Positions 908 to 31,348 of a DNA stretch of 64,000 nt are shown one piece after another; within the stretch, counting starts at the first letter, position 1, and the number at the start of each line of letters is the position of its first letter. Source of the DNA: Escherichia coli (GTDB taxonomy: Bacteria > Pseudomonadota > Gammaproteobacteria > Enterobacterales > Enterobacteriaceae); NCBI GenBank assembly GCA_902500055.1, contig GCA_902500055.1_4131.1; one strand, written 5' to 3'. Position numbers and translations under genes: made by a program. The notes below the pieces were generated by a model. It saw only the letters and a program-made list of their open reading frames with translations. It was not told the origin of the DNA and did no database searches.

Positions 908-1639
908 TTAGCAGCCTGTTACGTAAAATTTGTATACTGCAATTCCAGTATCTAGTGTTACATTTAGCATACCAGTTTTAGTAATACCAAGTGATACTGA
1001 TTCGGCATTAGATACGCGAGATAATGCTTGAAGTACGCGATCAATATTATAACCAAAACCAAGACCTAATTCACCTTCAGTTTTAGAAAAAGCTAGAGAA
1101 CCAACGTGGTTACTTTTGTTTTTCTCACCAACGTGAAAGTATAGGGTGTCGCCTTCAGTATACGGAGTTACAAGAGAACTAAAAGATTTAAATACACCAG
1201 AAAAACTCTTTAGTTCCTGAACTTTTGCTGCACTAGGAATAACCTGTACGTCATATGGTTGTTCATGAAAACGTGGTTGAACTGGAATAAGTTTTTCAGC
1301 TTGTACCATAAATGTAGTGCTTGCATCTTCAGATTTAAATGCCAGACTTTTAACTGAACCATCTTTAACATTTGATGTGATTGTGGTTCCTTCGGTACTG
1401 TATGTTTTTAGAGACATTAGACCCTGAAGAAGACCTAGATTACCTAAGCCAAAACGACCCTGAACTTCAGGAACATCTTCTTTAGTATATGCTCGCATTA
1501 CAAGAGTTCGGTCATCTGTGTACGCTTCTAGATATACACGTTGTCCTTCACCACGGTCTTCACTGCTTACTGCAATACAAGAGAAGTCAATACCACTGGT
1601 TGTGTTTACGAGGTCACGTAGTACGTTGCGTAGATCCAT
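908..1639 (-). CDS. putative sliding clamp (T4 gp45-like)
   Basis: 243 aa; N-terminus LRDLVNTTSGIDFS resembles T4 gp45 LKNFATINSGIMLKS, and the central GLGNLGLLQGLMSL segment resembles gp45 LNGFLGILSLV; size and position downstream of the polymerase fit. RBS GGAGA upstream of ATG. By-eye similarity only. Confidence 0.5.
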   Translation of the reverse strand: MDLRNVLRDLVNTTSGIDFSCIAVSSEDRGEGQRVYLEAYTDDRTLVMRAYTKEDVPEVQGRFGLGNLGLLQGLMSLKTYSTEGTTITSNVKDGSVKSLAFKSEDASTTFMVQAEKLIPVQPRFHEQPYDVQVIPSAAKVQELKSFSGVFKSFSSLVTPYTEGDTLYFHVGEKNKSNHVGSLAFSKTEGELGLGFGYNIDRVLQALSRVSNAESVSLGITKTGMLNVTLDTGIAVYKFYVTGC

Positions 1640-2190: not shown

Positions 2191-5100
2191 TTACCAAGTG
2201 AAGAATCCATTGTTTACTGACGCAGTACTTTTTTCATGAATACCAATATCCATATCCAAAATACCAAAAATATTCTCTAATTTTTTAGTTAGAACAATCT
2301 CTTCCATTTTTTCAGTATCAAATGGTAGTTCCAAGAACCATTCTGGAAGATACTCAACACAGTCAATTGGATAACCAACTGCTTTAATTCCCATAGGATT
2401 ATCTTTTAAGTTACAGACAATTACTTTTGTTCCATCTGTTACTTCTGGAACAGATTTATCATCATAAACTTCACGTAGACGGTTCCATTGGATACCAGCA
2501 AGAACGTGACCAACTTTACACTTACCAGTTAGCTGATATTCAGCCTCTAAATTAGTGTAGTTTTTTACAGTTTTTGGTGAACCTTTTTCATGTACAGGCA
2601 TATCCTTAAATACGTCCTTAAACTCACGTACACGCTGTTTTAGCTGTTGTTCACTCTCACCTACCAGTAATGCGATTAGAGTCTCTTCTAGGAAGTTCTG
2701 GATGTATTTTGGCGTGTCTGAGCGTTTAATTTCAAGACCCATCGCTTTGATTTCACCTGGTTTACCATCAATATCTTTACGGAACCCATCTTCCCAGTAC
2801 TTCAGAATTGCATAACGTTTTTTCTTCAAGAATAGGCCACGCGAACCAACCATCTCAAGGTCTGCACCAACAATCTTACCTTTTTCAATACCAGTGTTGA
2901 ACATCTCATGCATAAATGATGGGAAAGATTCACCAACTTCTTCACCAATTTTAATATACATATCAACAATCTCTTCTTTAGATAGATTATATGGAATACC
3001 TTGTTCTTTCAGATAATGAGTTACACTAAAGTAAACTGAGTCAGTATCACCATAAATTACTGAACCACCTTGGTGGTTATATACACCAGTAGTAATTTCA
3101 TTGATACGACTTGCCATATGTTTGGTCATAGAACGTCCAGTTAATGTTACGGATTGACCTAAACGTTTGTCAAAAAAACGAGAACCTTTGTTCAATAGTG
3201 CACCATATAGACTGTTTAGAAGAATCTTACGAATCTGTTGGTTCTGTTTCCAGAAAGCACTACGTTGTTTGAAGTAATCTTTTTCTTCTTTAGGACAGAA
3301 AATACGACCATCTTTTAGTACTAATCCGTTTTCTACAATCAACTTAGCAACTTCATCCCACTGTCCTTTACCAATTTCTTTACGAAGTAAGTATACAGGA
3401 TCATTATCATGAATATTAGTTCTAAACATTGTACCAGGGGTATAGTTTGATAGTAGTGGTTCGACTTTTTCATAGCCATTAAACTCCCAACCATCAGTAT
3501 ACATATGTTTGTAGTCAATGACCATTTTTTGCTGTGCTTTACGTTCAGAATACCATTGAGTTAGAATGTCAGGAATTACACCAGACTTAGACTTATCAAA
3601 AAGTGTTCCGTTTGCACTAAGTACAATAGTACTATCTTCTGCAAAAATAATATCATATAGCTCTTTGCCCGTTGCTTTAAAAGAACTCCCATCTTCTAAA
3701 TCAACAATCAATGTTTCTTCTGACTTTTCATGAACCATTGTAAATTCAACAGCAGCAAATAAACCATGCCATGCCGCAGTCCAATCTGGTTCAAATGATT
3801 TAGATTTAGATTTGTTCTTCTGTTCTTGGATTTTAGCTGCAAGATACGCATCGGTGTAATCTTGACGTAATTGACCAAGAATACATTCAGTACTCATACC
3901 CAAAGTACGTAGAACAGTAGGGTAAAGAGAGTTAAAGTCAGTACACCCAAGGTCACTTACAAGTCCTAGTACTGGATCTTGTACCCATGCACCTGCTGCT
4001 TTTGCACTAATTTTCTCATCTTCATCTTCACCATCTTCACCATAATATTCCATTTCTGGATCAAACTCAAGATCATCTTTCGGTGCTTTGTTGAAAACAA
4101 CTTCACCACGAGTATGTGCTAAGTTGATAATAGCAGTGTCGATTAGTGCTACTGAACCCATTGTTGTACTGATAAGTACACATTCTTTGTGTGCAAGTCG
4201 ATTGTGTAGGTTGATATAGTCACATTTAGCATCAATCTTTTTAAGAAGAATACTATCCTGTTTAGAATAACGCAAGAAAGTAATGTAATCCTCTCTGTAA
4301 AGTTTATCCAATGAACCTTCATATGATACTTTATTTTCTTTAGTTACTTTTTCAGCAATATAATCTAGTTTATAAGATTGTTCAACTTGACCAGCATGTT
4401 TCTTATACAAAGCCAAATAATCAAGATGGACGCGACCTACCAGATCATATGTTTGAACAGTTTTACCAAAGTTGTCTGCTTCACGTGAATTTGGTTTTTT
4501 ATTCCATAAACACCAACGAGCAGTTGTTGCTTCATTGAAGATTTTTTTAGTTCGATTGATCATATATGGAATATCAAAGAATTCACTATTCCATCCTGAA
4601 ATAACATCAGAATCATCAATTAAACTAAAGAATTCCATAAACATTTCCTTTTCGTCTGTATATAAAATTACAGTACTGTTAGGATCGTTTGTTTCTTCAT
4701 TTAGTTGGCGAACAATATCTTGTGCTTCATAAATTTCCATATCAGCAGGTGGTAAAGTAAGTACATAATCCTTTCCAGTCCATGATTGATATAGAGAAAT
4801 AGCGGTTACTCGGTTAAACGGGTCTGATGGTGGAGCATAACCAAATTTCTTATGGAAATCAGTCTCGATATCGAAGAACACGATGTTCAAATCGGGTGAA
4901 CCTTTTCCCATATATTCTTTAGCTAATGTTTTAAATGTAATGTTACAATCACTTTCAAAAATACGTAGACCTTCACTTTTGTGTTGCTCTACACTTTTAT
5001 TCATTTGAGCTTGAGTTTGAAACTCAAAATGTTTAGCCATTGTACCATAAACAGTTTTATGTGTTCCTTGTGGGGATTCAACATAATATTCATATACTGG

Positions 5101-5196
5101 TTCTAATTCGCGTAGAATACGTTTACCATTCTTACGTTCAACTACATGAAGAATATCACCAGTACGTTTACGTTCCATATAAGCATCGATATACAT
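2191..5196 (-). CDS. 43: DNA polymerase, family B (T4 gp43-like)
   Basis: 1001 aa; exonuclease motif FFDIETD, polymerase motif A (DxxSLYPT) and motif C YGDTDS all present; RBS AAGGGA upstream of ATG at 5196. Confidence 0.95.
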   Translation of the reverse strand: MYIDAYMERKRTGDILHVVERKNGKRILRELEPVYEYYVESPQGTHKTVYGTMAKHFEFQTQAQMNKSVEQHKSEGLRIFESDCNITFKTLAKEYMGKGSPDLNIVFFDIETDFHKKFGYAPPSDPFNRVTAISLYQSWTGKDYVLTLPPADMEIYEAQDIVRQLNEETNDPNSTVILYTDEKEMFMEFFSLIDDSDVISGWNSEFFDIPYMINRTKKIFNEATTARWCLWNKKPNSREADNFGKTVQTYDLVGRVHLDYLALYKKHAGQVEQSYKLDYIAEKVTKENKVSYEGSLDKLYREDYITFLRYSKQDSILLKKIDAKCDYINLHNRLAHKECVLISTTMGSVALIDTAIINLAHTRGEVVFNKAPKDDLEFDPEMEYYGEDGEDEDEKISAKAAGAWVQDPVLGLVSDLGCTDFNSLYPTVLRTLGMSTECILGQLRQDYTDAYLAAKIQEQKNKSKSKSFEPDWTAAWHGLFAAVEFTMVHEKSEETLIVDLEDGSSFKATGKELYDIIFAEDSTIVLSANGTLFDKSKSGVIPDILTQWYSERKAQQKMVIDYKHMYTDGWEFNGYEKVEPLLSNYTPGTMFRTNIHDNDPVYLLRKEIGKGQWDEVAKLIVENGLVLKDGRIFCPKEEKDYFKQRSAFWKQNQQIRKILLNSLYGALLNKGSRFFDKRLGQSVTLTGRSMTKHMASRINEITTGVYNHQGGSVIYGDTDSVYFSVTHYLKEQGIPYNLSKEEIVDMYIKIGEEVGESFPSFMHEMFNTGIEKGKIVGADLEMVGSRGLFLKKKRYAILKYWEDGFRKDIDGKPGEIKAMGLEIKRSDTPKYIQNFLEETLIALLVGESEQQLKQRVREFKDVFKDMPVHEKGSPKTVKNYTNLEAEYQLTGKCKVGHVLAGIQWNRLREVYDDKSVPEVTDGTKVIVCNLKDNPMGIKAVGYPIDCVEYLPEWFLELPFDTEKMEEIVLTKKLENIFGILDMDIGIHEKSTASVNNGFFTW

Positions 5197-5233
5197 CGTT
5201 TGTATTCCCTTACGTTTATTAAGTTAAAAAGAA

Positions 5234-5253
5234 AGCCTCCGTCATTGGAGGCT
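5234..5253 (-). terminator. rho-independent terminator (stem AGCCTCC / GGAGGCT, T-run on minus strand)
   Basis: Hairpin followed on the minus strand by TTCTTTTT, immediately downstream of the 5276-5578 gene and upstream of the polymerase start. Confidence 0.5.
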
Positions 5254-5275
5254 ATTTAATATATTTTAGTACTAA

Positions 5276-5578
5276 TTAGTAATCATCTGCTTGTGGAAGA
5301 TTATTAGTAACACTAAGAATAGTTTCGATATTATCGAGTTTATTTTGTTTGTCAAAGTAATCACCTTTGTACATACGTTGTGCAGCTTGTTTGATATCAG
5401 ATGCATCGATACCAAGTTCATCAGAAACACTAGAAACAAAATCAGATAAGGATGCTTTGGTATCATCAATGAAAGTTAGTTGTACAACAATGTTGTTAAG
5501 TGCGTCACCGAGACGTTTACGTTGTTCATCGTTTAGATCACGAATTTCAACTTTAACTTCTTTTTTAGATTTAGCCAT
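5276..5578 (-). CDS. hypothetical protein
   Basis: ORF track 5276..5605; start moved to ATG at 5578 (MAKSKKEVKVEIRDL...) which has GGAGA 8-9 nt upstream. Confidence 0.4.
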   Translation of the reverse strand: MAKSKKEVKVEIRDLNDEQRKRLGDALNNIVVQLTFIDDTKASLSDFVSSVSDELGIDASDIKQAAQRMYKGDYFDKQNKLDNIETILSVTNNLPQADDY

Positions 5579-5668
5579 TTTGTATTTCTCCATGTGTGTT
5601 TTCAAAAAAATGTCACCTCACCACAATCGGTGAGATGACTTAATTGTATCACGTCTTTACGTGTTGTC

Positions 5669-6184
5669 TCATTTTTTTTCCGGTTTAACTGGAAATGAAA
5701 ATGTTTTCTTGATCATGTCTGCTGGTTTGATTGAATTCAATTGCGTTACATAATCTTTCAATTTTACAAACAATACAGCTTCTTCATCAGTTGCTAACTC
5801 AAGATCCATAGCAGTTTTTAAGTGTCCAAGTTCTTGAATTGCAATGTATTTCAAATTAGATAATTCATTTTTTAGGCGTTCAATTTTTTCTTCTTTAGTT
5901 TCAATATAGTCATGAATAGTATTTCCATCGTAAACCATACCATAAAGTTTGTTAATATCACCATCATATTCAATTTCAGAAACACTAAAACCTAAAGGTA
6001 CTAGATCATAAATGTTATATGATGCTGAAACAATTAAACCGTTAATATCATACATAAATTTTGCTTTATTAATGTCAAACAATTCACGAGATTCATACCA
6101 ATCCATACCTTCATCGGACATCATATACAAAGAATTAGGATTACCACCTTCTTTTTCATACATCTTAAAATTTGTTAGTTGCAT
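5669..6184 (-). CDS. putative tail fibre assembly chaperone (Tfa/gp38-like)
   Basis: Immediately downstream of the tail-fibre gene; size and position typical of fibre chaperones. Start at ATG 6184 (MQLTNFKMYEKEGG...) with AAGGA upstream, avoiding overlap with the fibre gene. Functional call is positional. Confidence 0.4.
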   Translation of the reverse strand: MQLTNFKMYEKEGGNPNSLYMMSDEGMDWYESRELFDINKAKFMYDINGLIVSASYNIYDLVPLGFSVSEIEYDGDINKLYGMVYDGNTIHDYIETKEEKIERLKNELSNLKYIAIQELGHLKTAMDLELATDEEAVLFVKLKDYVTQLNSIKPADMIKKTFSFPVKPEKK

Positions 6185-6194
6185 TACACATTCC

Positions 6195-7805
6195 TTATTG
6201 TTGACGTACTGTTTCCCAGTTACCATTTATTTGCATTTGAACATAGCGATAACTAATTCGTTCTAAGTGAGTGCCTGAACTACCATTAACAGAAATCCAT
6301 ACGCCATCCATAAATGCACCTTCTGGTGTATATGTCCATGAAGAATCAGGTATTTTACGTGTTTCAATACGTGCACTCAAACGAATACTTTGTACGTTAT
6401 TAGTACTAATTTGCAAAGTAACGTTGCCACTAGCATCAGCAGCAGTACCGTTAATTGAACGAACAATATTTTTACCACCAACAGTAGCTGAGTTGTTAGA
6501 AACAGTTAATGATGGAGCAGCTAAAGTACCAGAAGAGTTTACAGTAACTTCTGCTCCACCGGAACGCAATCTCAATGTATTATTTGAAGAGTTATGATAC
6601 ACTGCCGCACGCTCACCACCGCTTGCGTTACGGAAATATAGAACTAATGATGTATCATTTGACTTAATTGACGCACTGTTTGCAATAGTCAATGAACCAG
6701 TCATTGTATCACCAGTTTTTAGTACATAACGAGTGTTTGCAACTTTTTCACTCAATGCAACGTTAGATTCAGCAATGTTATATAGATATGCAACGTTAAA
6801 GTGTTCCACATCAATGTTACTAATACCATGATAGTGTGGTTGGTTTCCACCAAGTGTGTTAGTGTTTCCACTAAATGAGTGAATGTGGTCTGGTGCTTCG
6901 TTAATGTTATTGATTACAGTTGGTATACCGTTATCATTACTTGAAGTTATCGCATTTAGACCACTACGGTCCATACCTTTTAGTGCTTGACTATGACCAT
7001 GACGACCAGCAGCCCCTGTGGTCCCACTAAAACTAAATGAGTGTGATGGTAATTGGGCAACACTTAATACTGTGCCGCTAATATTACCGCTACTACCAAT
7101 AACACTATCAGTTTTAGTTACACCAGATGTAGATATACCTTTTAAGTACGCTTTTTGGTTAAGGTTTGGTACTTGTTTAGTAATTGTACCATTTTCCCCC
7201 TCCCATTGCCACCACATACCATCAGCAAAACACCAACCGTCAGACGTTTTCCACGGAGCACCTTGTGAACCGTTTCTCCCACTTTGTCCATTCGATTGTC
7301 CTGACATTTGTTCACGTATACTAGCAACAGATTGACCAGAAGTCAATGAATATTGTGTAATAGCACCAGGTTTAAGTGAAGTGTAAAGACCAGTTGGACC
7401 AGAACCACCACTAGAAGCAGTAGGGAATACAATGTTTAAGGTTGTTCCACTAATACTTGCACTAGGAACAGTACTACTACTGTATGTTACACTTTCTACT
7501 TTTAAATTTAATTTTCGGTTTACTTCATCTAATGAAATTCTAATTGGTTCCAAAATAGTATCAGTATCATATACTGCAACCCAACTTGTACCGTTATGAT
7601 ACTTCAAAACTAATTCGCTTCGATCAAAAACCATTGCACCTTGTTCACCAGTAGGTAAAGTTTGTACTGGTATAATAACTGATGACGAATTAAAACGAAT
7701 AGGTCTTGGGTTAGTTGGTGTACCACCAAGCACTATTAGTTCTAAAGATCCATTAGCACCAGTACTGGTCATTGTATCCAATGGGTTATTAAAACTTATG
7801 CTCAT
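6195..7805 (-). CDS. tail fibre / receptor-binding protein (gp37/gp12-like distal fibre)
   Basis: 536 aa, Ser/Gly/Thr-rich, with His-x-His motifs (RHGHSQ, PDHIHSF, PHYHGISNIDVEH) characteristic of T-even fibre tips; followed by a chaperone-like gene. Confidence 0.6.
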   Translation of the reverse strand: MSISFNNPLDTMTSTGANGSLELIVLGGTPTNPRPIRFNSSSVIIPVQTLPTGEQGAMVFDRSELVLKYHNGTSWVAVYDTDTILEPIRISLDEVNRKLNLKVESVTYSSSTVPSASISGTTLNIVFPTASSGGSGPTGLYTSLKPGAITQYSLTSGQSVASIREQMSGQSNGQSGRNGSQGAPWKTSDGWCFADGMWWQWEGENGTITKQVPNLNQKAYLKGISTSGVTKTDSVIGSSGNISGTVLSVAQLPSHSFSFSGTTGAAGRHGHSQALKGMDRSGLNAITSSNDNGIPTVINNINEAPDHIHSFSGNTNTLGGNQPHYHGISNIDVEHFNVAYLYNIAESNVALSEKVANTRYVLKTGDTMTGSLTIANSASIKSNDTSLVLYFRNASGGERAAVYHNSSNNTLRLRSGGAEVTVNSSGTLAAPSLTVSNNSATVGGKNIVRSINGTAADASGNVTLQISTNNVQSIRLSARIETRKIPDSSWTYTPEGAFMDGVWISVNGSSGTHLERISYRYVQMQINGNWETVRQQ

Positions 7806-7845
7806 GTATAAATCCCTTTATGATTAATATATACTATATTTATTC

Positions 7846-8172
7846 CTATAGCAAGTCGTTATCCATATCATCCCACACAGAATCAATGATGTTTGCTGCT
7901 ATCTTTTTAGACATTTTAAACCACTCCGTGTTTGGTTGTCTAGTTGCATTCATTTGTTTAAGCCTTTTATGTATCTCTTTTTCAGCTAAACGTGCGTCTT
8001 CAAAGTGAACTTCATGATAAACTTCAAAATCACGAAACGGGGTAGCTGTCTGATACGTTCTCAAACGCTCTGTCATTTCAGATTTAGAAGTGAAACCAAT
8101 CTTAACATAGTCAGGCCATGCAGAGTTTATTATAACATAACATATCTGTGACATAGATTCAATCTCCATCAT
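7846..8172 (-). CDS. T5orf172 (GIY-YIG-like) domain protein
   Basis: Motif CYVIINSAWPDYVKIGFT...RLRTYQTATPFRDFEVYHEVHFEDARLAEKEIHKRL...EWF matches the T5orf172/MUG113 signature. Confidence 0.55.
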   Translation of the reverse strand: MMEIESMSQICYVIINSAWPDYVKIGFTSKSEMTERLRTYQTATPFRDFEVYHEVHFEDARLAEKEIHKRLKQMNATRQPNTEWFKMSKKIAANIIDSVWDDMDNDLL

Positions 8173-8193
8173 TAATATGGAGATATTTATCTA

Positions 8194-8553
8194 TCAATTA
8201 ATAGTGAATTTTAAACCAATATCAATTAAACGTTGAAAAGGATTATGTGGCTGAAATTCCGAGGGTTCTTGTGCAATGTTTAGCACAGGAGCATCAGAAT
8301 GCAGCAGCGACATACGTTCTCTATAATGATCGATGTATTCTTCATACAACATATCTTCAGTATGTGTATTAAGTATATCTTCTATGAAAGAATCTAAACT
8401 ATAATCTAATCTATCATCATTATAATACAATGTTTCAGTGGCTTCATCGTATCCAACTAACGTACCATAAGGAACATTTATTTCTATATTTGAGTACTGG
8501 CTCTTTAAGTACTCTTCTCTTTTAAATTTGTATACAGTTAACATCCGTGTCAA
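8194..8553 (-). CDS. hypothetical protein
   Basis: 119-aa ORF; no motif recognised. Confidence 0.4.
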   Translation of the reverse strand: MTRMLTVYKFKREEYLKSQYSNIEINVPYGTLVGYDEATETLYYNDDRLDYSLDSFIEDILNTHTEDMLYEEYIDHYRERMSLLHSDAPVLNIAQEPSEFQPHNPFQRLIDIGLKFTIN

Positions 8554-8567
8554 CTCCTTTAGATTGT

Positions 8568-9722
8568 TTACTTAAAGGTATTTACAATTTCCAGTACAGA
8601 TTTTAGATACTTTTCATCAAACGTTTCAGTAAATCCTGACGGCAACTCTTCAGTACTTACTACTCCACTTTCAATGTACTGCTTGATAAACTTTTCCAGT
8701 AAGAGGGGTTTATTACCATCTTCGAAGAAACGTTCTACTAGTACTTCATGGACGAATTCAGAATCACGACTCTGTTCGTTCACTCTACGTTTCATATCAC
8801 CAGTGATTCCATATTTGTAAACGGTTTTATCTTTATTAGTTAGTTTCTGTACATAAAAATATCCAGGCTTGGAAGTCTGATAACCATACTTACCGCATTT
8901 TGGACAACCACGACCTGTCAAATGTGCTTTAGGTTGCTGATGAAAAATATTTTTACAATTGTTGCATTTTATCTCGACCATTTTTTCACTATGCTCATAC
9001 ATAACAGATGAGTAATCATAATTATTGTTATGAACTTTTACAGCTTCTGCAATAAATTGCTCGGTTGTTCTCCCACCTTTACCTGAACATATACCACATC
9101 CTGACTTCCCAAGTATCAATGTTTTTGGATCAACTTCCCAATCATGATTTCCTTCATTGCAATGCACTGTGACTTTTGTTGTTCTGTTAATATAGTTGGT
9201 TTTTTGGAAACTAAATTTATCACCATAATTACGTTTAACAATTTTTATAAATTCATTATTCGTATGCACTACATTAATATTACAAACGTTACATCCAGCA
9301 CCAGTTAATAACTTATTTGGTGTTATGTGAAAATAACCATTATGTTTAGTGCAGAATATTGTAACTGGAGTTTTTGCATTAACATAAACCAATTTATCAA
9401 ATTTAAATTTTTCAGTCCCGAATTTCTTTTCAACTTTTAAAATGAAATCATCATTATTGGAACGCTGGGACATGTTACTATAACAGTTAGAGCAAGTACA
9501 TGAGATATGACGAATTGCAGACTTTGTATTTTCAATACCACATTTGTTACATTTCAAGGTAGTTTTGCTAGATTTAAAAATCATCGAATTAAAATCAAAC
9601 TCACCATACATTCCATATTTTTCATTCATTTTCTTTTTGAAATTTTCAATTAACATTTTCAATTTACTCAACTTGGTTTCGATTTGATAATTATATATAA
9701 TTAAAAATATTCTGTCAAGCAT
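8568..9722 (-). CDS. homing-endonuclease-like protein: tandem zinc-ribbon repeats plus C-terminal GIY-YIG-like module
   Basis: At least three repeats of the type VTIFCTKHNGYFHITPNKLLTGAGCNVC / VTVHCNEGNHDWEVDPKTLILGKSGCGIC / VEIKCNNCKNIFHQQPKAHLTGRGCPKCG (DUF4379-like ribbons); C-terminus GYFYVQKL...VYKYGITGDMKRR resembles GIY-YIG. Start set to ATG 9722, downstream of the terminator hairpin; track start 9863 would overlap the capsid gene. Confidence 0.5.
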   Translation of the reverse strand: MLDRIFLIIYNYQIETKLSKLKMLIENFKKKMNEKYGMYGEFDFNSMIFKSSKTTLKCNKCGIENTKSAIRHISCTCSNCYSNMSQRSNNDDFILKVEKKFGTEKFKFDKLVYVNAKTPVTIFCTKHNGYFHITPNKLLTGAGCNVCNINVVHTNNEFIKIVKRNYGDKFSFQKTNYINRTTKVTVHCNEGNHDWEVDPKTLILGKSGCGICSGKGGRTTEQFIAEAVKVHNNNYDYSSVMYEHSEKMVEIKCNNCKNIFHQQPKAHLTGRGCPKCGKYGYQTSKPGYFYVQKLTNKDKTVYKYGITGDMKRRVNEQSRDSEFVHEVLVERFFEDGNKPLLLEKFIKQYIESGVVSTEELPSGFTETFDEKYLKSVLEIVNTFK

Positions 9723-9743
9723 TTTTTTAACACAAAAGAAAAG

Positions 9744-9760
9744 GGACTCCGAAGAGTCCC
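9744..9760 (-). terminator. rho-independent terminator hairpin (GGGACTC-cgaa-GAGTCCC) downstream of capsid gene
   Basis: Perfect 7-bp stem; A-run on plus side (T-run on minus) and T-run on plus, so potentially bidirectional. Confidence 0.55.
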
Positions 9761-9804
9761 TATTGTTTTTATATTCTTGATTAAATCTTTTAAATCGTTT
9801 ATAA

Positions 9805-10980
9805 TTACATGAAAGTAACGTTTTTGATAGCGATTTTGCTGTAGTAGTCAGCAGCGTTACCAAGAGATGAAGTACTGTCGGTTAGCTGAACGTAGCCATA
9901 GCGTGTTAAAAATGTGGTCACGAGTTCACCAGTGTTAGGGTCCATTACAGTACCAGAAGCCATTAGTGGGATGTATGGGCAATAGAATACACCAGCATCA
10001 GTTTCCGCATTACCTTTATAACCAATTAGAATATCTTCTGCATCACTAGCATAGGTATCAACGAAAATACGCATAGTGCTGTTTAGAGTACCTACAAACT
10101 TAACGTTAGTTGGTGCTTCAAAAGTACCTTCAGTGGTACGTGCAAAGCTAGAAGTAGTAGCAGATTGTAGAATGGTTAGTGCAGTTGGGGAAACAACAGC
10201 CCAGTTTGCAGCACCACGCTTAGTACGACGAGCAACTTCGTTTGCTTGACGGTTAATTAGAGTAGCTAGAGCAGCGTGCTCATCACCAACGAAGGTTGCA
10301 ACACCAGTAACTTTAGATTGGTCATAAGTTACAGCAGCAGCACCAGGTAGTGCACGTAGACGGCTTAGTAGCTCTTGGTCGATTTCTACAGTAACTTCTT
10401 GAGCGATTGCAGCCATTAGTTCTGCTTCAACGTCAACACCATGTTGGGATTGAGCATCTTGTGCAGATTCAACAGTCCAACGTGCAGATAGACGACGAGA
10501 TTTCGCTTCAACAGTTTCACGTAGAATACGGATGTTAACGCGACGACCCATAGTACCTTCTAGTTGGCTAGTAGGAGCAGCTTGTGGGTTGCTATTATCC
10601 GCATTTAGATCACCAGAGTAGGATTTAGCGATTTTGTATGGAGAAAGCATTTCTTCACCAGCGATTACACCAGGTGCGTTATCAGCATATTGTACACGTA
10701 GGGTGTGGATCTGACCAACTGGACCAGTCATAGGTTGAACACCGATGATTTCGTTAGCAATAACGGTTGGCATTACACGACGCATAATTGGTAGAATCAC
10801 TTTGTTTAGAGTAGCGATGTTACCAGCGGTAGTTGCACCAGAAGTTGCGGATTCAGTTAGCATAACTTTACGATGGTTATCAAGAACAGTTTCCATTACA
10901 GACTTACGAGTACCCTGTAGACCTTCAACTAGTTTCTCTTTTACTGCTACCCATTTGGATTCATTTAGTAGTTGTGACAT
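9805..10980 (-). CDS. 23: major capsid protein (T4 gp23-like; gp24-like vertex paralog not excluded)
   Basis: IIGVQPMTGPVGQIHTLRVQY matches T4 gp23 ICGVQPMNSPTGQVFALRAVY; EAKSRRLSARWTVESAQDAQSQHGVDVEAEL matches EAKSRQLKAAYSIELAQDLRAVHGMDADAEL; lies after the scaffold gene as in T4. RBS AAGGAG. Confidence 0.8.
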   Translation of the reverse strand: MSQLLNESKWVAVKEKLVEGLQGTRKSVMETVLDNHRKVMLTESATSGATTAGNIATLNKVILPIMRRVMPTVIANEIIGVQPMTGPVGQIHTLRVQYADNAPGVIAGEEMLSPYKIAKSYSGDLNADNSNPQAAPTSQLEGTMGRRVNIRILRETVEAKSRRLSARWTVESAQDAQSQHGVDVEAELMAAIAQEVTVEIDQELLSRLRALPGAAAVTYDQSKVTGVATFVGDEHAALATLINRQANEVARRTKRGAANWAVVSPTALTILQSATTSSFARTTEGTFEAPTNVKFVGTLNSTMRIFVDTYASDAEDILIGYKGNAETDAGVFYCPYIPLMASGTVMDPNTGELVTTFLTRYGYVQLTDSTSSLGNAADYYSKIAIKNVTFM

Positions 10981-11026
10981 TATATATCTCCTTAAAGATG
11001 TTATATTCGTTTTTCAGTATGATATT

Positions 11027-11034
11027 ATTTATAG
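11027..11034 (-). promoter_or_regulatory. T4-type late promoter TATAAATA (minus strand) upstream of capsid gene
   Basis: Exact TATAAATA on the minus strand ~47 nt upstream of the capsid ATG; a gp55-like sigma factor is encoded in the window. Confidence 0.5.
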
Positions 11035-11071
11035 AACTGAAAAATTTGATTATTAAAATGCTTTAAAATGT

Positions 11072-12187
11072 TTATTTTTTATTGATACCTGAAAGAACAT
11101 CGAGTTCTTTTAGGAATGCCATATCGTCAGCGGTCATTTCTTCGCTTTCAACAATAGCCTGACGGTTGCCAGTGATTACTTTACCTTCTGCAAGAGTTTT
11201 CTTAGCGGAAGACTGAACTGCTTGACGAGTGGTAGCAGATTCATTTACTTTAGTACCGTTAAGTACTGACTTATGGTACTTGCTGAAATCTTCTTTAAGC
11301 TTTTCAGTAGGTGAAGTAGCTAGAAGAGATTCCATAATTTGTTTTTGCTGTGCAGTTAGTGGTTTTACTAGTTCAGACATAATCGCATTACGTGCTTGTG
11401 CATCTTCCATAATACGTAGTTTGGTTTTAGCAGCTTTAACCGCATTAGCAGTTTCATGTAGTTCTTGCTTAACTTGAGCAATTTCATCTTCTTTAGATTT
11501 AATTGATTCAGTTAGGGAACGTAGCAATGAGTTTTCATTAAATTGTTTGACATTAAACTCTTGAGCAAATGCTTCAAAGATTTTACGACCAAACATATTT
11601 TGTTTTGCTTCCACTAGATCTTGTTTCAACGCATATAGATTCTTCTGAGTGGTTTCTGCAATATATTTAGCAGCACTTTCAGATGTACGTTTGATGAAGT
11701 TATTACGAGCTTCAGCAATTTGACGTGAACCTTCAGCAAGTAGTTTAACGCGAGTTTCAACTAGTTGACGTTTTTCAGTGTGGAATTCTTTTAGCTCTTC
11801 TGCTAGGATACCGTTAGAAAAATTAACGAATTTACCCATGCATTCATGAAGATGCTTACGTTCTTTACGCATTTGTTTAACTTCTTCAGCCAAAACAGAG
11901 TTTGAAAACGCAGAGAAATTGCTTAGTGTTTTACGTAGAGTTACACGATCTTCAACAAGACGTTTTTTCTCTTCATATACAGCACCCATTTCTTCAGCAA
12001 TGACTTGAGTAACCATAGTGTTCAAACCTTCGGTTAGTTCAGCCAAATCTTGCTGATAACGGCCTTTCATTTCTTCACGCATCTCTGCGGCTAGTGTGTT
12101 CTTTTCTTCATTCCATGCTTCCTGAATTAGCTGTTTTGCCTCATCAGAAAGAGATGATTCTTTTAGAAGCTTTTCTAATTTAGACAT
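11072..12187 (-). CDS. 22: prohead core scaffold protein (gp22-like)
   Basis: 371 aa, Glu/Lys/Ala/Gln-rich with coiled-coil character; positioned between protease and capsid genes as in T4; RBS AAAGGAGAG. Confidence 0.6.
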   Translation of the reverse strand: MSKLEKLLKESSLSDEAKQLIQEAWNEEKNTLAAEMREEMKGRYQQDLAELTEGLNTMVTQVIAEEMGAVYEEKKRLVEDRVTLRKTLSNFSAFSNSVLAEEVKQMRKERKHLHECMGKFVNFSNGILAEELKEFHTEKRQLVETRVKLLAEGSRQIAEARNNFIKRTSESAAKYIAETTQKNLYALKQDLVEAKQNMFGRKIFEAFAQEFNVKQFNENSLLRSLTESIKSKEDEIAQVKQELHETANAVKAAKTKLRIMEDAQARNAIMSELVKPLTAQQKQIMESLLATSPTEKLKEDFSKYHKSVLNGTKVNESATTRQAVQSSAKKTLAEGKVITGNRQAIVESEEMTADDMAFLKELDVLSGINKK

Positions 12188-12234
12188 TCGTTCTCTCCTT
12201 TAAGTACTGAAATATCTGTACTTCAACATACAGA

Positions 12235-12242
12235 TATTTATA
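12235..12242 (-). promoter_or_regulatory. T4-type late promoter TATAAATA (minus strand) upstream of scaffold gene
   Basis: Exact TATAAATA on the minus strand ~45 nt upstream of ATG at 12187. Confidence 0.45.
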
Positions 12243-12253
12243 TTTTTAAAATG

Positions 12254-12877
12254 TTAACCTTTTAATTTCTTGAAAAAATCGTATATTTCAGAATCTAAAT
12301 TATTTACTTTTTTAGATTCAGTGATTTTTTTAGAACTATTACAAGGTGATCCGTACTTACTCATCAGAGATTCAAATACCGCTGTTGGGTATGCTTCTGG
12401 AGCACTAGGTTGAGCAACAATATCAATAGTGATAATTTCAAAATCAGAAACTATTCCATTATAATCAACGTTACCGGAACCGCGAGAACTTACACCAAGT
12501 TTTACACCAGCCTCTAGCATTTTACGGATATTTTGACCATGTGCAGTATCAAGTAGTTTGATTTCTGCCATACCATTAGCACCTTCCATCCAAACCTTAG
12601 TAATCATTGCTGCTACTCGGTCTAGGTTAATAGTTAGTGTTTCTGGATGGTCACATTCAACAAGAATGCTTTCACCTTTAGCTAAACGCTGGTTCATGTT
12701 ATTTACTGCCCTTGTAATTTCAGATAAAGGGTAAATTCTCTCGTTCAAATTTCGTTGGTCGGCTTGAATAGCAATACCACGAAGATAGCAGTCACGCCCA
12801 CCAAATCCATTATCACGATGTTCCAAAACAACTTTAGAATCATTGAATGAAGACCATTCACGAATCATACTACTCAT
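12254..12877 (-). CDS. 21: prohead core protease (gp21-like)
   Basis: RNLNERIYPLSEITRAVNN ... ECDHPE ... GVKLGVSSRGSGNV parallels T4 gp21 NRNKRLYPKRILEKAV ... LNHPP ... GWIPGVSSRGLGSL; RBS GGAGA. Confidence 0.8.
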   Translation of the reverse strand: MSSMIREWSSFNDSKVVLEHRDNGFGGRDCYLRGIAIQADQRNLNERIYPLSEITRAVNNMNQRLAKGESILVECDHPETLTINLDRVAAMITKVWMEGANGMAEIKLLDTAHGQNIRKMLEAGVKLGVSSRGSGNVDYNGIVSDFEIITIDIVAQPSAPEAYPTAVFESLMSKYGSPCNSSKKITESKKVNNLDSEIYDFFKKLKG

Positions 12878-12897
12878 AATGATCTCCTTTCAGATAT

Positions 12898-13722
12898 TTA
12901 TTTTAGTTTAGGTTGTGCTTTGCTTAGTGGTGATTTAGAATTAGATGCAGTAGTTTTTGGTGCTTTAACATCTTTCATTTCACCGCGAGCATTTTTACCA
13001 AGATCTAGACTATCTTTTGGTAGAACAGATTTATCATCTAGGTCTAGTAGTGGTGCTTGGTCAGTTTTCTTAGCGAATTTAACTGGCTCTGCTCCTGCTA
13101 CTGGAGATTTAGCTTCTGGTGCTACTGGAGATTTGGAATGAGTGCCAGCTTTTTCTTTCTTATCAACTGGAGCAACTTTTTCTAGTTTGAAGGATTCACC
13201 GAATTTTTCATCACCGAATTCAACATCAGCAAATTCGTCGTCACCGTCAACGCCAACTTCTTCTTCGCTATCTTCTACTTCTTCTTCAGAATCTAGATCA
13301 ACTTCACCGTCACCGATTTCATCAAACATTTGTTGTAGGCCACGGAAAGCATCTTGGATTGATTCCCATTGGTCTTCGGAAGGAACATCAGCATCAGCTT
13401 TCACTTCAACGTCAACATCGTCTTCACCGTCACCATCTTCATCAGCAGAGAATTCAACTTCTTCTTCTGCACTTTCATCTTCTTCACCAAGGGTGTATTC
13501 GATTTCAGCATTTAGACCTTCGTCTGGTTGTACATCAAAATCTTCGTCAAGCTTTTCTTCATCTTTGACTTCACAATCTTCATCTTCCATGCTTTCTTCT
13601 AGTTGTTTGTTAATTTCTTGAGCTTGCTCAACGAAATACTTACGCATTTTTTTATCAGCAATATCTTGTTCGCCATTTGCAAACGCCGCAATTGCTTCTT
13701 GTAGTAGTTTTAAATTCGCCAT
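12898..13722 (-). CDS. highly acidic prohead core / internal protein (gp68-like)
   Basis: Extremely Asp/Glu-rich low-complexity protein between portal and protease genes; start moved to ATG 13722 (MANLKLLQEA...) which has GGAGGA 5 nt upstream. Functional call is positional. Confidence 0.4.
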   Translation of the reverse strand: MANLKLLQEAIAAFANGEQDIADKKMRKYFVEQAQEINKQLEESMEDEDCEVKDEEKLDEDFDVQPDEGLNAEIEYTLGEEDESAEEEVEFSADEDGDGEDDVDVEVKADADVPSEDQWESIQDAFRGLQQMFDEIGDGEVDLDSEEEVEDSEEEVGVDGDDEFADVEFGDEKFGESFKLEKVAPVDKKEKAGTHSKSPVAPEAKSPVAGAEPVKFAKKTDQAPLLDLDDKSVLPKDSLDLGKNARGEMKDVKAPKTTASNSKSPLSKAQPKLK

Positions 13723-13823
13723 TATATCCTCCATAGATATATTACATTCGTATAAAGTATGATATTATTTAGTACTGAATAAAATCGCCTTTTTTAAAAG
13801 CTTTAAAAAGTGCGATTTTTGAT

Positions 13824-14051
13824 TTACATTAACCCAGAACCGTCACCTGTTGGTGCAGCGGCATAAACAACTGCAACCACATTTTTGCGGCGTTGTTCTT
13901 CATGTGCTTTAAATTCACGGTACTTTCTTAAGTTGTTTAATACTTGTAATGTTAGTTTCGGTTTTCTGGAATCAGTAATTTTATATACGTTCTGATCATC
14001 TTCAGGGTCGTACATTGAATCACTGCTAGATTCAAAGATGTCCTTTAACAT
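13824..14051 (-). CDS. small prohead core protein (gp67-like, positional)
   Basis: 75-aa ORF immediately downstream of the portal gene, as gp67 is in T4. Confidence 0.35.
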   Translation of the reverse strand: MLKDIFESSSDSMYDPEDDQNVYKITDSRKPKLTLQVLNNLRKYREFKAHEEQRRKNVVAVVYAAAPTGDGSGLM

Positions 14052-14123
14052 TTGATCTCCTTGAAATATGCATTATAAATGAGGGTAAAATAAACCCTCA
14101 TTCTTATACACTGTTATTTATGT

Positions 14124-15863
14124 TTAAAAAGAATTGCCTAAATTATTAGGGTCAAAACCACCACTTCCACTCTGTTGCTCTTGATATTCGGCATCAGCAC
14201 TTTCCAAATTACCTTCTCCATCAATACCAAGATCCATTCCAGGATCATTTGGAGCATCAATACCAACAGACTGCAATCCTGCGGAATCTTCTTCACCACC
14301 AGAAGGTTGGGAACCATCTTGTGGATTCTCTTGTAACCACATTTGTTCATTCTTAACAATATCAGCTTTAGAAAAGCCCATTTTTTCAAGAATTGTTTGT
14401 TTCGCCATATAAGGCAAGTCATTAAGAGGAAGATATGTATTAATTAGTTTAGCATCTAGTTCAGCTTTACGATAAGAAGCTAAGTTAATAGGTGGATTCA
14501 TAATAACTTCAAAAGATGAAGTACTAATGTTATATCCATTTTTAACCATAAATCTTTTGAATTCAGCATCAAAATGTTTTGCAACTAAACGTTGATAACG
14601 CATACATTGATTATTGAATCGCAATTCACTTGCCATAGCTTGTGTAGCACCATCACCAAATAATGAAACACCACCATCATCTGGACCTTGTGGTAGATAT
14701 GAAGCTGGTATTTGAAGACCACGAATCAATTTATTATTGAAATAACGTAAGTCATCAATTTGTCCTAAGTTATCACCGCCTGGTAATGTTTGAACATCTG
14801 AACCACGACCTTCAGAAGTTTGTGGGAAAAAGTAGTCTTCTAAAATGCTTAATGGATTATACGCTGCATCCATTAGTGAAGTACTTCCACCTTTGTTTGA
14901 AGGTATTCTACGCTGGTGGATTTCATTTTTAAATCTTTCAACATATGCCATTGCTTGGTGAGCTTGCATATCACCGACATCGATTTTAAATACGCGACGT
15001 TCCGGTGCACGTTGAACACGATAGATAATAATACTATCTTCCAGAAGTTCTTTTTGTTTATAGACTTTAAATACGTCCTCAAGTATACTAGTACCAAAGG
15101 GCCATACTCCATCTTGTCCTGTATTTAGTGTCAGGTGAATAACGTGTTCTGCACCTACTGGGATAACATCTAGTTGACCGTTAGTACTGAATGGATCAGC
15201 AGTATTTCCTTGACTTGTAAAACCAGATGCACCACCCGCAGCTACTGAACCACCACCACCCATTGTTGTCGGAATAGCTCCTGGATAAGCGGTTTTATCA
15301 AATCCTACTTGAAGGTTACTAAAAACTTTATCTTTCAAATTTAATGATACGTCACGTATATAATAAATTACTGGTGTTTTACCAGTGGCTTCGTTAACAA
15401 ATACTTGCTCAACATTTTTGGGACTTACCCAATACCAATCGAATGTTTCTGGATCTCGAATGAAAAATTGATCACCATATTTCAGAAGACCACGCACAAT
15501 TTCATACATTCGTGTTTTAAAATCATTTTGTTCAGTCCATGCATCTAAACGATCTTCAATAGTCGTTACTTCAGTATCACCAATATCATCTTTATATTTG
15601 ATTTTATATGGTAAACCAAAATCTTCAGTACTTTGGGTACAAAAGTCAGCAATTATATTCAATGCAGTTCTAATTTCAGGATCTTGGTCCATTTGCTCAT
15701 ACTGACTATAACGCTCAGTACGGTTTGCCAATCCATTATATACAACAGGAAGATAGGAAGCGAAATTTGTTTTCGTTCCTGTTGATTTATTGCTATTACT
15801 GGACTGATTTGGGATGGTCGATAGTTTAGACCTTCCCACTGTCATATGTCGTTTCCAACTCAT
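14124..15863 (-). CDS. 20: portal vertex protein (gp20-like)
   Basis: EDSIIIYRVQRAPERRVFKIDVGDM ... TLPGGDNLGQIDDLRYF matches T4 gp20 [25 protein letters not shown] ... TLPGADNTGNMEDIRWF; RBS AAGGA. Confidence 0.85.
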   Translation of the reverse strand: MSWKRHMTVGRSKLSTIPNQSSNSNKSTGTKTNFASYLPVVYNGLANRTERYSQYEQMDQDPEIRTALNIIADFCTQSTEDFGLPYKIKYKDDIGDTEVTTIEDRLDAWTEQNDFKTRMYEIVRGLLKYGDQFFIRDPETFDWYWVSPKNVEQVFVNEATGKTPVIYYIRDVSLNLKDKVFSNLQVGFDKTAYPGAIPTTMGGGGSVAAGGASGFTSQGNTADPFSTNGQLDVIPVGAEHVIHLTLNTGQDGVWPFGTSILEDVFKVYKQKELLEDSIIIYRVQRAPERRVFKIDVGDMQAHQAMAYVERFKNEIHQRRIPSNKGGSTSLMDAAYNPLSILEDYFFPQTSEGRGSDVQTLPGGDNLGQIDDLRYFNNKLIRGLQIPASYLPQGPDDGGVSLFGDGATQAMASELRFNNQCMRYQRLVAKHFDAEFKRFMVKNGYNISTSSFEVIMNPPINLASYRKAELDAKLINTYLPLNDLPYMAKQTILEKMGFSKADIVKNEQMWLQENPQDGSQPSGGEEDSAGLQSVGIDAPNDPGMDLGIDGEGNLESADAEYQEQQSGSGGFDPNNLGNSF

Positions 15864-18167: not shown

Positions 18168-18175
18168 TATAAATA
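18168..18175 (+). promoter_or_regulatory. T4-type late promoter TATAAATA (plus strand)
   Basis: Exact TATAAATA ~35 nt upstream of ATG 18210 in a divergent intergenic region. Confidence 0.5.
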
Positions 18176-20092: not shown

Positions 20093-20644
20093 TCAATAAT
20101 TTATATTTTTTGATATGAAGTCTTTTATAATTTTAATGTGGTCATCTGAATACTTTATTCTAAGTAAAGTAATATTATTATCATAACAATACTTATTCTT
20201 AATTTCATCATTTCGTTGTTGTTCAGCTAAACCTTCTTCTCCACCGAAGTATTCTATTGGTTTGAAGTGTTGGATACCATCATATTCTATTAGTAGATTA
20301 AGTTCAGGAATATAAAAATCAAATGGTAAATGATTGATGTTTTTACAACTATCAAATTTCTTTTCCATTTCAAACATTATATCACACGTTTTTAAAAAAT
20401 TCTGAATTTCAATAACAGGTTTTGATTTTAGTTCTTGGTCTGAACAAACTGGACACCCTTGTTTTGCAGAAATGTGTTTATTAGGAACTACTGTGAAGTC
20501 ACCGTGAATGTTACACGTAACAGTTATTGGATGGTGTGCATTGACATATATTGTTTTATTGTATGTGTAAATACTACCATGAATATTCATTGATTTATCT
20601 ATGAATTGTTGTTGTGTAATTTTAGCTATTCTTGTGTACCTCAC
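20093..20644 (-). CDS. zinc-ribbon + PD-(D/E)xK (Vsr/DUF559-like) nuclease, homing-endonuclease-like
   Basis: N-terminus HHPITVTCNIHGDFTVVPNKHISAKQGCPVCS is the same ribbon type as in 8568-9722; C-terminus LPFDFYIPELNLLIEYDGIQHF...RDxxK fits the DUF559/Vsr-like PD-(D/E)xK core. Confidence 0.5.
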   Translation of the reverse strand: MRYTRIAKITQQQFIDKSMNIHGSIYTYNKTIYVNAHHPITVTCNIHGDFTVVPNKHISAKQGCPVCSDQELKSKPVIEIQNFLKTCDIMFEMEKKFDSCKNINHLPFDFYIPELNLLIEYDGIQHFKPIEYFGGEEGLAEQQRNDEIKNKYCYDNNITLLRIKYSDDHIKIIKDFISKNINY

Positions 20645-25301: not shown

Positions 25302-25309
25302 TATAAATA
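25302..25309 (+). promoter_or_regulatory. T4-type late promoter TATAAATA (plus strand)
   Basis: Exact TATAAATA ~36 nt upstream of ATG 25345, with RBS GGAG in between. Confidence 0.5.
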
Positions 25310-31340: not shown

Positions 31341-31348
31341 TATAAATA
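31341..31348 (+). promoter_or_regulatory. T4-type late promoter TATAAATA upstream of lysozyme gene
   Basis: Exact TATAAATA 17 nt upstream of ATG 31365. Confidence 0.5.

Follow-up and report, generated by a model that had tools for sequence, protein, structure and literature searches.

A probable baseplate tail fibre and its assembly chaperone, with an exchangeable tip, at a conserved locus of RaK2-like jumbo phages

The tail fibre gene and adjoining chaperone gene described here, with a probability of roughly 80%, encode the baseplate fibre typical of the 121Q/PBECO4-type lineage of RaK2-like jumbo myoviruses, along with a chaperone for its folding. The window, by which we mean the whole 64,000-nucleotide stretch of DNA analysed, belongs to Asteriusvirus and derives from a 121Q/PBECO4/phAPEC6-like, RaK2-like jumbo phage. 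It carries the commonest 121Q/PBECO4 allele of the pair, fibre and chaperone (Tfa) being 98.5–99.3% identical in 22 phage records. The counterparts gp607/gp608 of 121Q and gp515/gp514 of PBECO4 (tail fiber/tail fiber assembly protein), at 98.9–99.2% nucleotide identity and with the same order and neighbours, differ from the window only in the adjacent endonuclease, and both genes already bear names in the GenBank/RefSeq records of 121Q, PBECO4 and others. The features of the region are as follows.

2191–5196: family-B DNA polymerase gene (polB), flanking the Tfa side
5612–5639, minus strand: strong intrinsic terminator, 12-bp stem with 6 GC pairs, then T7
5669–6184, minus strand: tail fibre assembly protein Tfa, 171 aa, of the Mu U/P2 G/lambda Tfa type
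6195–7805, minus strand: tail fibre gene, 536 aa, an ORF of the RaK2 gp098/CBB_260/121Q gp607 family
6198–6416, minus strand: distal tip of the fibre, aa 464–536 (73 aa), exchangeable, putatively receptor-binding
6417–7070, minus strand: fibre shaft, aa 246–463, with three HxH motifs, a conserved YVLKTGDTMTGSL segment and the RSINGxxADxxGNVTL junction at its end
6828–6836, minus strand: HxH motif 3, QPHYHG, aa 324–326
6879–6887, minus strand: HxH motif 2, PDHIHS, aa 307–309
6993–7001, minus strand: HxH motif 1, GRHGHS, aa 269–271
7071–7805, minus strand: N-terminal ~245 aa of the fibre, kept in all genera, putative baseplate attachment
7846–8154, minus strand: T5orf172 gene (GIY-YIG-related), 102 aa (Pfam T5orf172, 3.7e-13)
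8568–~9656, minus strand: free-standing endonuclease with treble-clef zinc fingers and a C-terminal T5orf172-like domain (phrog_681, 9e-73; DUF4379); the start at 9656 is the probable one
9805–15863: major capsid protein, scaffold, protease and portal genes, starting 2 kb beyond the fibre

The original prediction of a fibre with an adjacent chaperone-like gene is borne out, both ORFs being present on the minus strand and the second identified as Tfa by Pfam, PHROG and PDB searches. Over its full length (aa 1–536 on profile positions 1–544) the fibre matches phrog_13229 ‘tail fiber protein’ (E 1.4e-272), and it is 99% identical to 121Q gp607, an annotated tail fiber protein. For the family, 138 clusters of 520–600 aa came to light, and those of their longest contigs that are complete assemblies measure ~345–385 kb. 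A Pfam search of the fibre protein gave no family match, and PDB searches with the single sequence (phmmer) or a 13-sequence profile returned only chance matches at E ≤ 1. The AlphaFold2 monomer of the full-length fibre has a pLDDT of 70.3 and a pTM of 0.31, while a model of aa 376–536 is all-beta with a pLDDT of 86.7. Family alignments reveal two alternative versions of aa ~245–320, followed by a conserved stretch at aa 322–463.

Tfa scores 36.3 bits (7.4e-9) against Pfam PF02413 Caudo_TAP, for which the curated cut-off is 22.1 bits, and matches phrog_136 (4.9e-37) and the phage Mu Tfa U structure (PDB 5yvq_B, 3.5e-8). Its start is the ATG at 6184, preceded by an AAGGA ribosome-binding site (6192–6196) that overlaps the fibre stop codon; a 185-aa version starting at 6226 was rejected as an ORF-caller extension, the PHROG and Mu-U homology beginning at its residue 15. 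The two genes are separated by 10 nt and share the terminator, which is annotated at the corresponding place in the UE-S1 record. A T4-type late promoter (TATAAATA) precedes the capsid, scaffold and hub genes; upstream of the fibre the match is only 7/8 (AATAAATA, 7837–7844), and late expression of the fibre–Tfa unit is presumptive. The order of fibre then Tfa is that of Mu S/U (PDB 5yvq, 8ju3), P2 H/G and P1 S/U, the window Tfa being a recognisable homolog of Mu U, and no Mu/P1-style paralogous or alternative tips were found within the window.

The description of the fibre as ‘gp37/gp12-like’ holds for its three HxH motifs, a feature shared with T4 gp12 and gp37, but not for its sequence, which has no homology to either T4 protein by Pfam or PDB (including 2xgf and 1h6w). 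At least three HxH motifs arise in only 0.075% of 20,000 shuffles of the fibre protein, and H324 and H326 are invariant in 45/45 family members; the AlphaFold2 monomer has a pLDDT below 50 across this stretch. By analogy with T4 gp37/gp12, the motifs may bind metal. T4 gp12 is 527 aa and ~34 nm long, close to the 536 aa of the window fibre, and the ortholog data described below suggest a similar baseplate-bound role in irreversible binding. The chaperones differ, being gp57A/gp38 in T4 and of the Mu-U type here.

The order polB, small ORF, (Tfa), fibre, T5orf172, small ORF, (endonuclease), major capsid is the same in 16/16 loci from at least four named genera and unclassified relatives, covering Asteriusvirus, Mimasvirus (GAP32, CBB), Eneladusvirus (Serratia BF), Alcyoneusvirus (RaK2), Salmonella 7t3 and Klebsiella fENko-Kae01. 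This identical gene order indicates that the whole clade inherited the locus from its ancestor, and that the fibre has its place on the margin of the head/baseplate block. The pair was correctly placed between the DNA polymerase on one side and nuclease-like genes (T5orf172 and the endonuclease) on the other; however, it cannot be called ‘displaced’ from a slot it occupies in every locus, nor is this a pure replication region, since the head genes begin 2 kb past the fibre and, in 121Q and PBECO4, further genes with a virion structural annotation are found across polB.

A further part of the original prediction, that the pair is a horizontally acquired host-range cassette, possibly mobilised by the endonucleases next to it, we regard as very improbable in the form of a recent insertion of foreign DNA among the replication genes, driven by homing-type enzymes. 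It would account for the nuclease-like genes on one flank, the turnover of the large endonuclease slot, the swapping of tip and Tfa among lineages, and the local mosaic in UE-S1 (nucleotide identity is ~100% over the stretch that runs from the 5′ end of the fibre gene to hyp116 inclusive, but ~92% in polB). Yet both the position across genera and the high identity within the window’s species group, signs that the original prediction itself named as pointing to ancestry, speak against recent acquisition, and a check of local composition found nothing foreign: fibre and Tfa have a GC3 of 0.197–0.198 against a window mean of 0.209, synonymous codon use is typical for the window, and the sole oddity is the low total GC of Tfa (0.287), its GC3 being average. 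Nor could we find a close donor among phages, in E. coli or in a large protein collection. The DNA of tip and Tfa has no match in 5,426 complete E. coli genomes, and the closest relatives from beyond the jumbo phages share only 35–44% identity in the tip and 27–31% in Tfa. The rV5/phAPEC8-like phages (Vequintavirinae, Phapecoctavirus) are the nearest non-jumbo kin of the last ~110 aa (35–44%) and of Tfa (27–28%), and phrog_4465 matches fibre aa 415–534, but the remainder of their fibre is unrelated and they are too far removed for a recent donor. In a collection of 5.8 billion proteins, a 117-aa tip query returned three clusters and a Tfa query four, in which a word-index search of limited sensitivity revealed no outside donor, all hits being E. 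coli or jumbo-phage records, ~345–386 kb contigs or short fragments.

The endonucleases themselves fit poorly with a role in mobilisation. What really varies in this region is the endonuclease at 8568–9656, which has its own 12/12 sigma-70 consensus (9690–9718) and a best phage match of 73% nucleotide identity against at least 98.5% in its flanks; its slot is empty in PBECO4, holds another allele in SHEFM2K and G17, and a 72% (aa) version in 121Q. Presence/absence polymorphism is confined to this gene, the fibre being found in every relative, and the endonuclease stands two genes from the fibre, adjoining the capsid gene. The same tip/Tfa allele occurs with four large-endonuclease states, including the empty one, whereas in Ec-M-J and Turkey3 the tips have been swapped and the endonucleases still score 70% and 69% against that of the window, the T5orf172 scores also being equal. 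The T5orf172 gene is 68–100% identical in all relatives but RaK2, that is, a conserved resident in every genus except RaK2’s. What survives of the host-range cassette is an exchange on a finer scale, that of the last ~73 residues and Tfa, rather than of the whole pair.

This smaller block is exchangeable, and its divergence is decoupled from that of the core genes. The fibre N-terminus retains 59–68% identity as far as RaK2, GAP32, CBB and Serratia BF, is the sole fibre part alignable to RaK2 at DNA level, and among Asteriusvirus relatives except A4 follows polB while diverging somewhat faster. Tip identity to JNE01, Ec-M-J and EJP2, by contrast, is 42–54% regardless of a polB identity of 76–94%, and in identity matrices both tip and Tfa distances are flat (42–54%) over all core distances. 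The clearest pair is Ec-M-J and Turkey3: their polB is 100% identical and the N-termini of their fibres are 98% identical, yet the tips fall into different Pfam classes, with 24% identity, and only one of the two phages has a Tfa. Nucleotide identity to relatives dips only between ~5600 and ~6500, with sharp edges at the conserved RSINGxxADxxGNVTL junction and at the terminator, to the left of which identity rises again. We propose that the tip/Tfa block was probably replaced by recombination. The alternative of fast diversifying selection acting in place, with no recombinational replacement, is quite unlikely: rapid evolution is known for receptor-binding tips, and UE-S1 has a gradual rise in divergence (N-terminus 96% identical, middle 95%, tip 83%, Tfa 86%), but selection of this kind is hard to reconcile with the Ec-M-J/Turkey3 comparison, the flat distances or the sharp block edges. 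The joint exchange of tip and Tfa also lends indirect support to a need for Tfa in folding or trimerisation of the tip.

Three tip classes were found, namely Tfa-dependent, PF21882 and PF13884. In place of the window’s tip, Turkey3 and RaK2 have a Gp53-like_C domain and Serratia BF a Peptidase_S74 domain. These may represent three solutions for one slot: a Mu-U-type Tfa encoded as its own protein, a Gp53-like_C tip that would fold unaided, and a tip with the S74 intramolecular chaperone.

The location of the fibre on the particle is suggested by its orthologs. RaK2 gp098 (identical to phiK64-1 S2-8) is a virion protein, a baseplate-located secondary receptor-binding protein; serum against its C-terminus reduces plating efficiency, and in contracted particles the immunogold label is found on the baseplate (PMC10253068). 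Its gene, like that of the window fibre, is found between polB and the gene for the major capsid protein; the N-terminal 230 aa are 62% identical and the HxH/stem region is conserved. It differs in lacking a T5orf172 neighbour and in its Gp53-like_C (PF21882) tip with no Tfa after it, where the window fibre ends in 73 aa of the Tfa-dependent class; as the two tips are only 15% identical, function is transferred through the shared N-terminus and stem only. Two further orthologs are present in virions, CBB_260 by 11 mass spectrometry peptides (PMC5259590) and ENKO_290 of fENko-Kae01, recorded as ‘identified with LC-MS/MS’, while the Tfa of each, CBB_261 and that of fENko-Kae01, is absent from the peptide list (PMC5259590) and without such a note, respectively. 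The phAPEC6 Tfa, Gp220, was likewise undetected in the virion (PMC7247149). The fibre ORF is unannotated in the phAPEC6 GenBank record, so the phAPEC6 virion proteome could not report it, and merits a re-search with the missing gene.

Six short fibres have been seen beneath the baseplate of phAPEC6 and CBB (PMC7247149, PMC5259590), and the window fibre probably corresponds to these rather than to the ‘hairy’ tail and capsid fibres. That it belongs instead to the whiskers which decorate the sheath or capsid in virions of the 121Q/phAPEC6/CBB type, or forms part of a long tail fibre, appears unlikely. The gene does adjoin head genes, and phAPEC6 and CBB bear unassigned filaments on tail and capsid (PMC7247149, PMC5259590), but RaK2, which is not described with whiskers, has the ortholog at its baseplate, where it is needed for infection (PMC10253068). 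A Tfa-dependent exchangeable tip is moreover typical of receptor-binding fibres. The fibre’s length is close to that of T4 gp12. The short fibres of CBB measure 28.6 nm (PMC5259590).

In our working model of the preferred reading, a baseplate fibre with its chaperone, the fibre is presumably a homotrimer, anchored to the baseplate in Asteriusvirus by the conserved N-terminal ~245 residues, from which the HxH-bearing shaft and beta-rich stem would extend. The last ~73 residues would bind a cell-surface receptor, probably in a secondary, irreversible step analogous to that of the T4 gp12 short tail fibres. The 171-aa Tfa, encoded directly downstream and likely made from the same late transcript, may help the tip trimerise from its C-terminal end, as do Mu U and P2 G, and would not be kept in the virion in a detectable amount. 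Homologous recombination between the RSINGxxADxxGNVTL junction and conserved sequence past the Tfa terminator could then swap tip and chaperone together. We advance more tentatively the idea that the invariant RSINGxxADxxGNVTL is a dedicated recombination junction for the three tip/chaperone solutions in one baseplate-fibre slot; that the conserved T5orf172 neighbour additionally stimulates this recombination is less likely.

Beyond correct annotation the importance of the finding is small, the RaK2 ortholog having been studied experimentally and the pair itself annotated. Besides the large fibre cluster, this fibre probably helps to determine the host range of Asteriusvirus phages proposed for therapy, and it is practically useful that the exchangeable unit is sharply bounded, ~0.9 kb comprising the 73-aa tip and Tfa. 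If the junction idea is true, jumbo phages would possess a natural, engineerable host-range switch.

The tail fibre and its assembly chaperone (Tfa) sit in a region where all genes of the window's first 18 kb are on the minus strand, in the following transcription order.

Features around the fibre locus, in transcription order
14124-15863, minus strand: portal, the first gene
minus strand: structural protein, between portal and prohead protease
12254-12877, minus strand: prohead protease
11072-12187, minus strand: scaffold
9805-10980, minus strand: gp23-type major capsid protein (Pfam Gp23, 1.3e-89)
8568 to about 9656, minus strand: zinc-finger endonuclease, next after the capsid gene
minus strand: 116-aa ORF, between the endonuclease and T5orf172 genes
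7846-8154, minus strand: T5orf172 protein, 102 aa
6195-7805, minus strand: fibre, 536 aa
5669-6184, minus strand: Tfa, 171 aa
5612-5639, minus strand: strong terminator, after Tfa
5276-5578, minus strand: 100-aa ORF, between the Tfa terminator and the polymerase
2191-5196, minus strand: family-B DNA polymerase (polB)
908-1639, minus strand: 243-aa ORF, counterparts in Turkey3 and fENko-Kae01 carry the annotation sliding clamp or Gp45-like
minus strand: GroES, the last named

The original prediction, of a fibre and chaperone between polB and nuclease-like genes, holds, its coordinates being the exact span of the two genes. The Tfa start codon is the ATG at 6184, and its AAGGA site overlaps the fibre TAA stop; a longer 185-aa ORF is an ORF-calling artefact. 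The 100-aa ORF is conserved in every relative and weakly matches phrog_639, a PHROG transcriptional-regulator family (2e-7). Exact copies of the T4 late-promoter sequence TATAAATA (900-907, 11026-11033, 12235-12242, 18168-18175, 25302-25309 and 31341-31348) lie just upstream of structural genes, among them capsid, scaffold and hub; as the total of six in the window is not above chance, it is their placement alone that is suggestive. A gp55-like late sigma factor gene is found at 24374-25213.

The 5-kb region matches Escherichia phages 121Q, PBECO4, phAPEC6, SHEFM2K and about 20 more Asteriusvirus records of 348-373 kb, and the fibre and Tfa alone align gap-free at 98.5-99.3% identity in 22 records. 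Several records, including 121Q, PBECO4, SHEFM2K and JP4, already label the pair 'tail fiber protein' and 'tail fiber assembly protein'. We compared the homologous locus in 16 phages: Asteriusvirus or close relatives (121Q, SHEFM2K, PBECO4, phAPEC6, UE-S1, JNE01, vB_Ec-M-J, Turkey3, A4 and EJP2), Salmonella 7t3, Klebsiella fENko-Kae01, the Mimasviruses Cronobacter GAP32 and Pectobacterium CBB, the Eneladusvirus Serratia BF and the Alcyoneusvirus Klebsiella RaK2. All 16 share the order polB, ~100-aa ORF, (chaperone), fibre, T5orf172, small ORF, (endonuclease), major capsid protein, scaffold, protease and portal, with ORF097 in place of T5orf172 in RaK2. This common order, with the fibre slot kept between polB and the major capsid gene throughout, contradicts the proposed displacement into a replication region. 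In 121Q and PBECO4, polB also has genes with a virion structural protein annotation on its far side; the fibre is therefore no stray in a replication module, and it is the polymerase that forms an island within a structural super-module. Searching 5.8 billion proteins yielded 138 fibre-family clusters (515-602 aa among the matches listed); where the longest contig of a cluster is a complete assembly, it measures ~345-385 kb, which marks the fibre as a core gene specific to the lineage of RaK2-like jumbo phages.

Per-gene identities and full pairwise matrices reveal a layered pattern of divergence. Among the Asteriusvirus relatives, A4 excluded, the N-terminal 245 aa of the fibre track the core genes with somewhat faster divergence, the stem diverges faster still, and the last ~73 aa (the tip) and Tfa are decoupled from the core genes. 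JNE01, Ec-M-J and EJP2, with polB 76 to 94% identical to that of the window, share 42-54% identity with its tip and 46-50% with its Tfa. Between Ec-M-J and Turkey3, polB is identical and the fibre N-termini agree at 98%, but the tips share only 24% identity; Ec-M-J carries a Tfa and Turkey3 does not, the Turkey3 tip being Gp53-like_C (PF21882), the same kind as that of RaK2. Likewise, 7t3 and fENko-Kae01 have identical polB, with tips at 50% and Tfa at 55% identity, while in Serratia BF and its relatives the fibre ends in a Peptidase_S74 intramolecular-chaperone domain. Sliding nucleotide identity delimits a divergent block from the terminator at ~5600 to ~6400-6600, and the protein break falls directly after RSINGxxADxxGNVTL (aa 448-463), conserved across all tip classes but the S74 type of Serratia BF. 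Judged from these edges, the exchangeable unit would be the tip plus chaperone, about 0.9 kb, within an ancestral locus.

Two relatives stand out. Downstream of its fibre, phage A4 carries two chaperone genes that differ from each other (positions 5118-6271 of its locus). The A4 fibre is divergent along its whole length, with an N-terminus 66% identical to the window's, though polB is at 94%, and marginally nearer RaK2 (68%); here the gene seems to have been replaced whole, not by a tip swap. UE-S1 is ~100% identical in nucleotides to window positions 7700-8560, running from the 5' end of the fibre gene over T5orf172 and the 116-aa ORF, with polB at only ~92% and tip/Tfa at 78-89%, which makes the surroundings of its fibre locus a local recombination mosaic.

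The suggestion that neighbouring endonucleases mobilised the pair is not borne out. T5orf172 (68-100% identity) holds the same place in every genus except that of RaK2 and is therefore a resident gene. The large endonuclease slot beside the capsid gene (8568-9863, minus strand) is unstable and hypervariable: the best match to the window's allele among 50,697 phage records is 73% in nucleotides (121Q), unlike its flanks, both at least 98.5% identical; SHEFM2K, G17/slurp01 and others carry different alleles, and in PBECO4 and Salmonella SD phages the slot is empty. Yet across all these endonuclease states (121Q, SHEFM2K, G17/slurp01, PBECO4, Salmonella SD) the window's tip/Tfa is retained at 98.5% identity or above. 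Conversely, the endonucleases of Ec-M-J and Turkey3 score alike against the window's (70% and 69%), as do their T5orf172 genes (92% each), despite their different tips. The evidence thus speaks against the endonucleases as agents of tip/Tfa exchange. The window's enzyme, with treble-clef zinc fingers and a T5orf172-like C-terminus, is free-standing, lies two genes from the fibre, and has its own promoter (12/12 sigma-70 consensus, 9690-9718) and a place after the capsid terminator, as in free-standing homing endonucleases. The 431-aa ORF listed for it extends too far, into the capsid gene, and the start is likely to be at 9656. Elsewhere, a 183-aa ORF (20093-20644, minus strand) resembles the zinc-finger repeats of this endonuclease (tblastn E 5e-6), and the stretch separating the baseplate hub gene from the endonuclease VII gene has ~570 nt more in the window than in SHEFM2K; together these suggest a second mobile endonuclease insertion.

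For the window's own pair, allele frequency, composition, codon use and donor searches show no sign of recent acquisition. The tip/Tfa allele is the common one, the GC3 of the two genes (0.197 and 0.198) is close to the window mean (0.209), and their synonymous codon use is typical for the window. No E. coli genomes searched carry similar DNA, and a large protein database returned for tip and Tfa solely E. coli/jumbo-phage records, jumbo-size contigs and short fragments. Outside the jumbo clade the nearest relatives are distant: rV5/phAPEC8-type fibre ends for the tip (35-44% identity), and phAPEC8-like phages, P1, Mu and P2 for Tfa (27-31%).

The predicted HxH motifs of the fibre (aa 269, 307 and 324) are real, at least three occurring in only 0.075% of shuffled sequences, with H324 and H326 invariant in 45/45 homologs. 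The RaK2 ortholog, gp098, is a virion component; antiserum against its C-terminus reduced plating efficiency, and immunogold labelled the baseplate, mainly on contracted particles, from which its authors concluded that it is a baseplate protein and secondary receptor-binding protein with a role comparable to T4 gp12 (PMC10253068). CBB virions contain the ortholog CBB_260 (11 peptides, 24% coverage), and the Tfa CBB_261 is absent from their protein list (PMC5259590); similarly, the fENko-Kae01 record marks the fibre, and not Tfa, as MS-identified. The phAPEC6 Tfa, Gp220, was undetected in the virion (PMC7247149). In the phAPEC6 record (MK817115.1, 137511-139121; 4527-6137 of the extracted locus) the intact 536-aa fibre ORF is unannotated, with only a 49-aa 'gp221c' inside it, so the published virion proteome could not have reported the fibre. 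Six short fibres lie beneath the baseplate in phAPEC6 (PMC7247149) and CBB (PMC5259590), and we infer that they are formed by this protein. The locus is ancestral, already annotated and partly characterised; 'host-range cassette' fits only its tip-plus-chaperone block, which is decoupled from the core genes.
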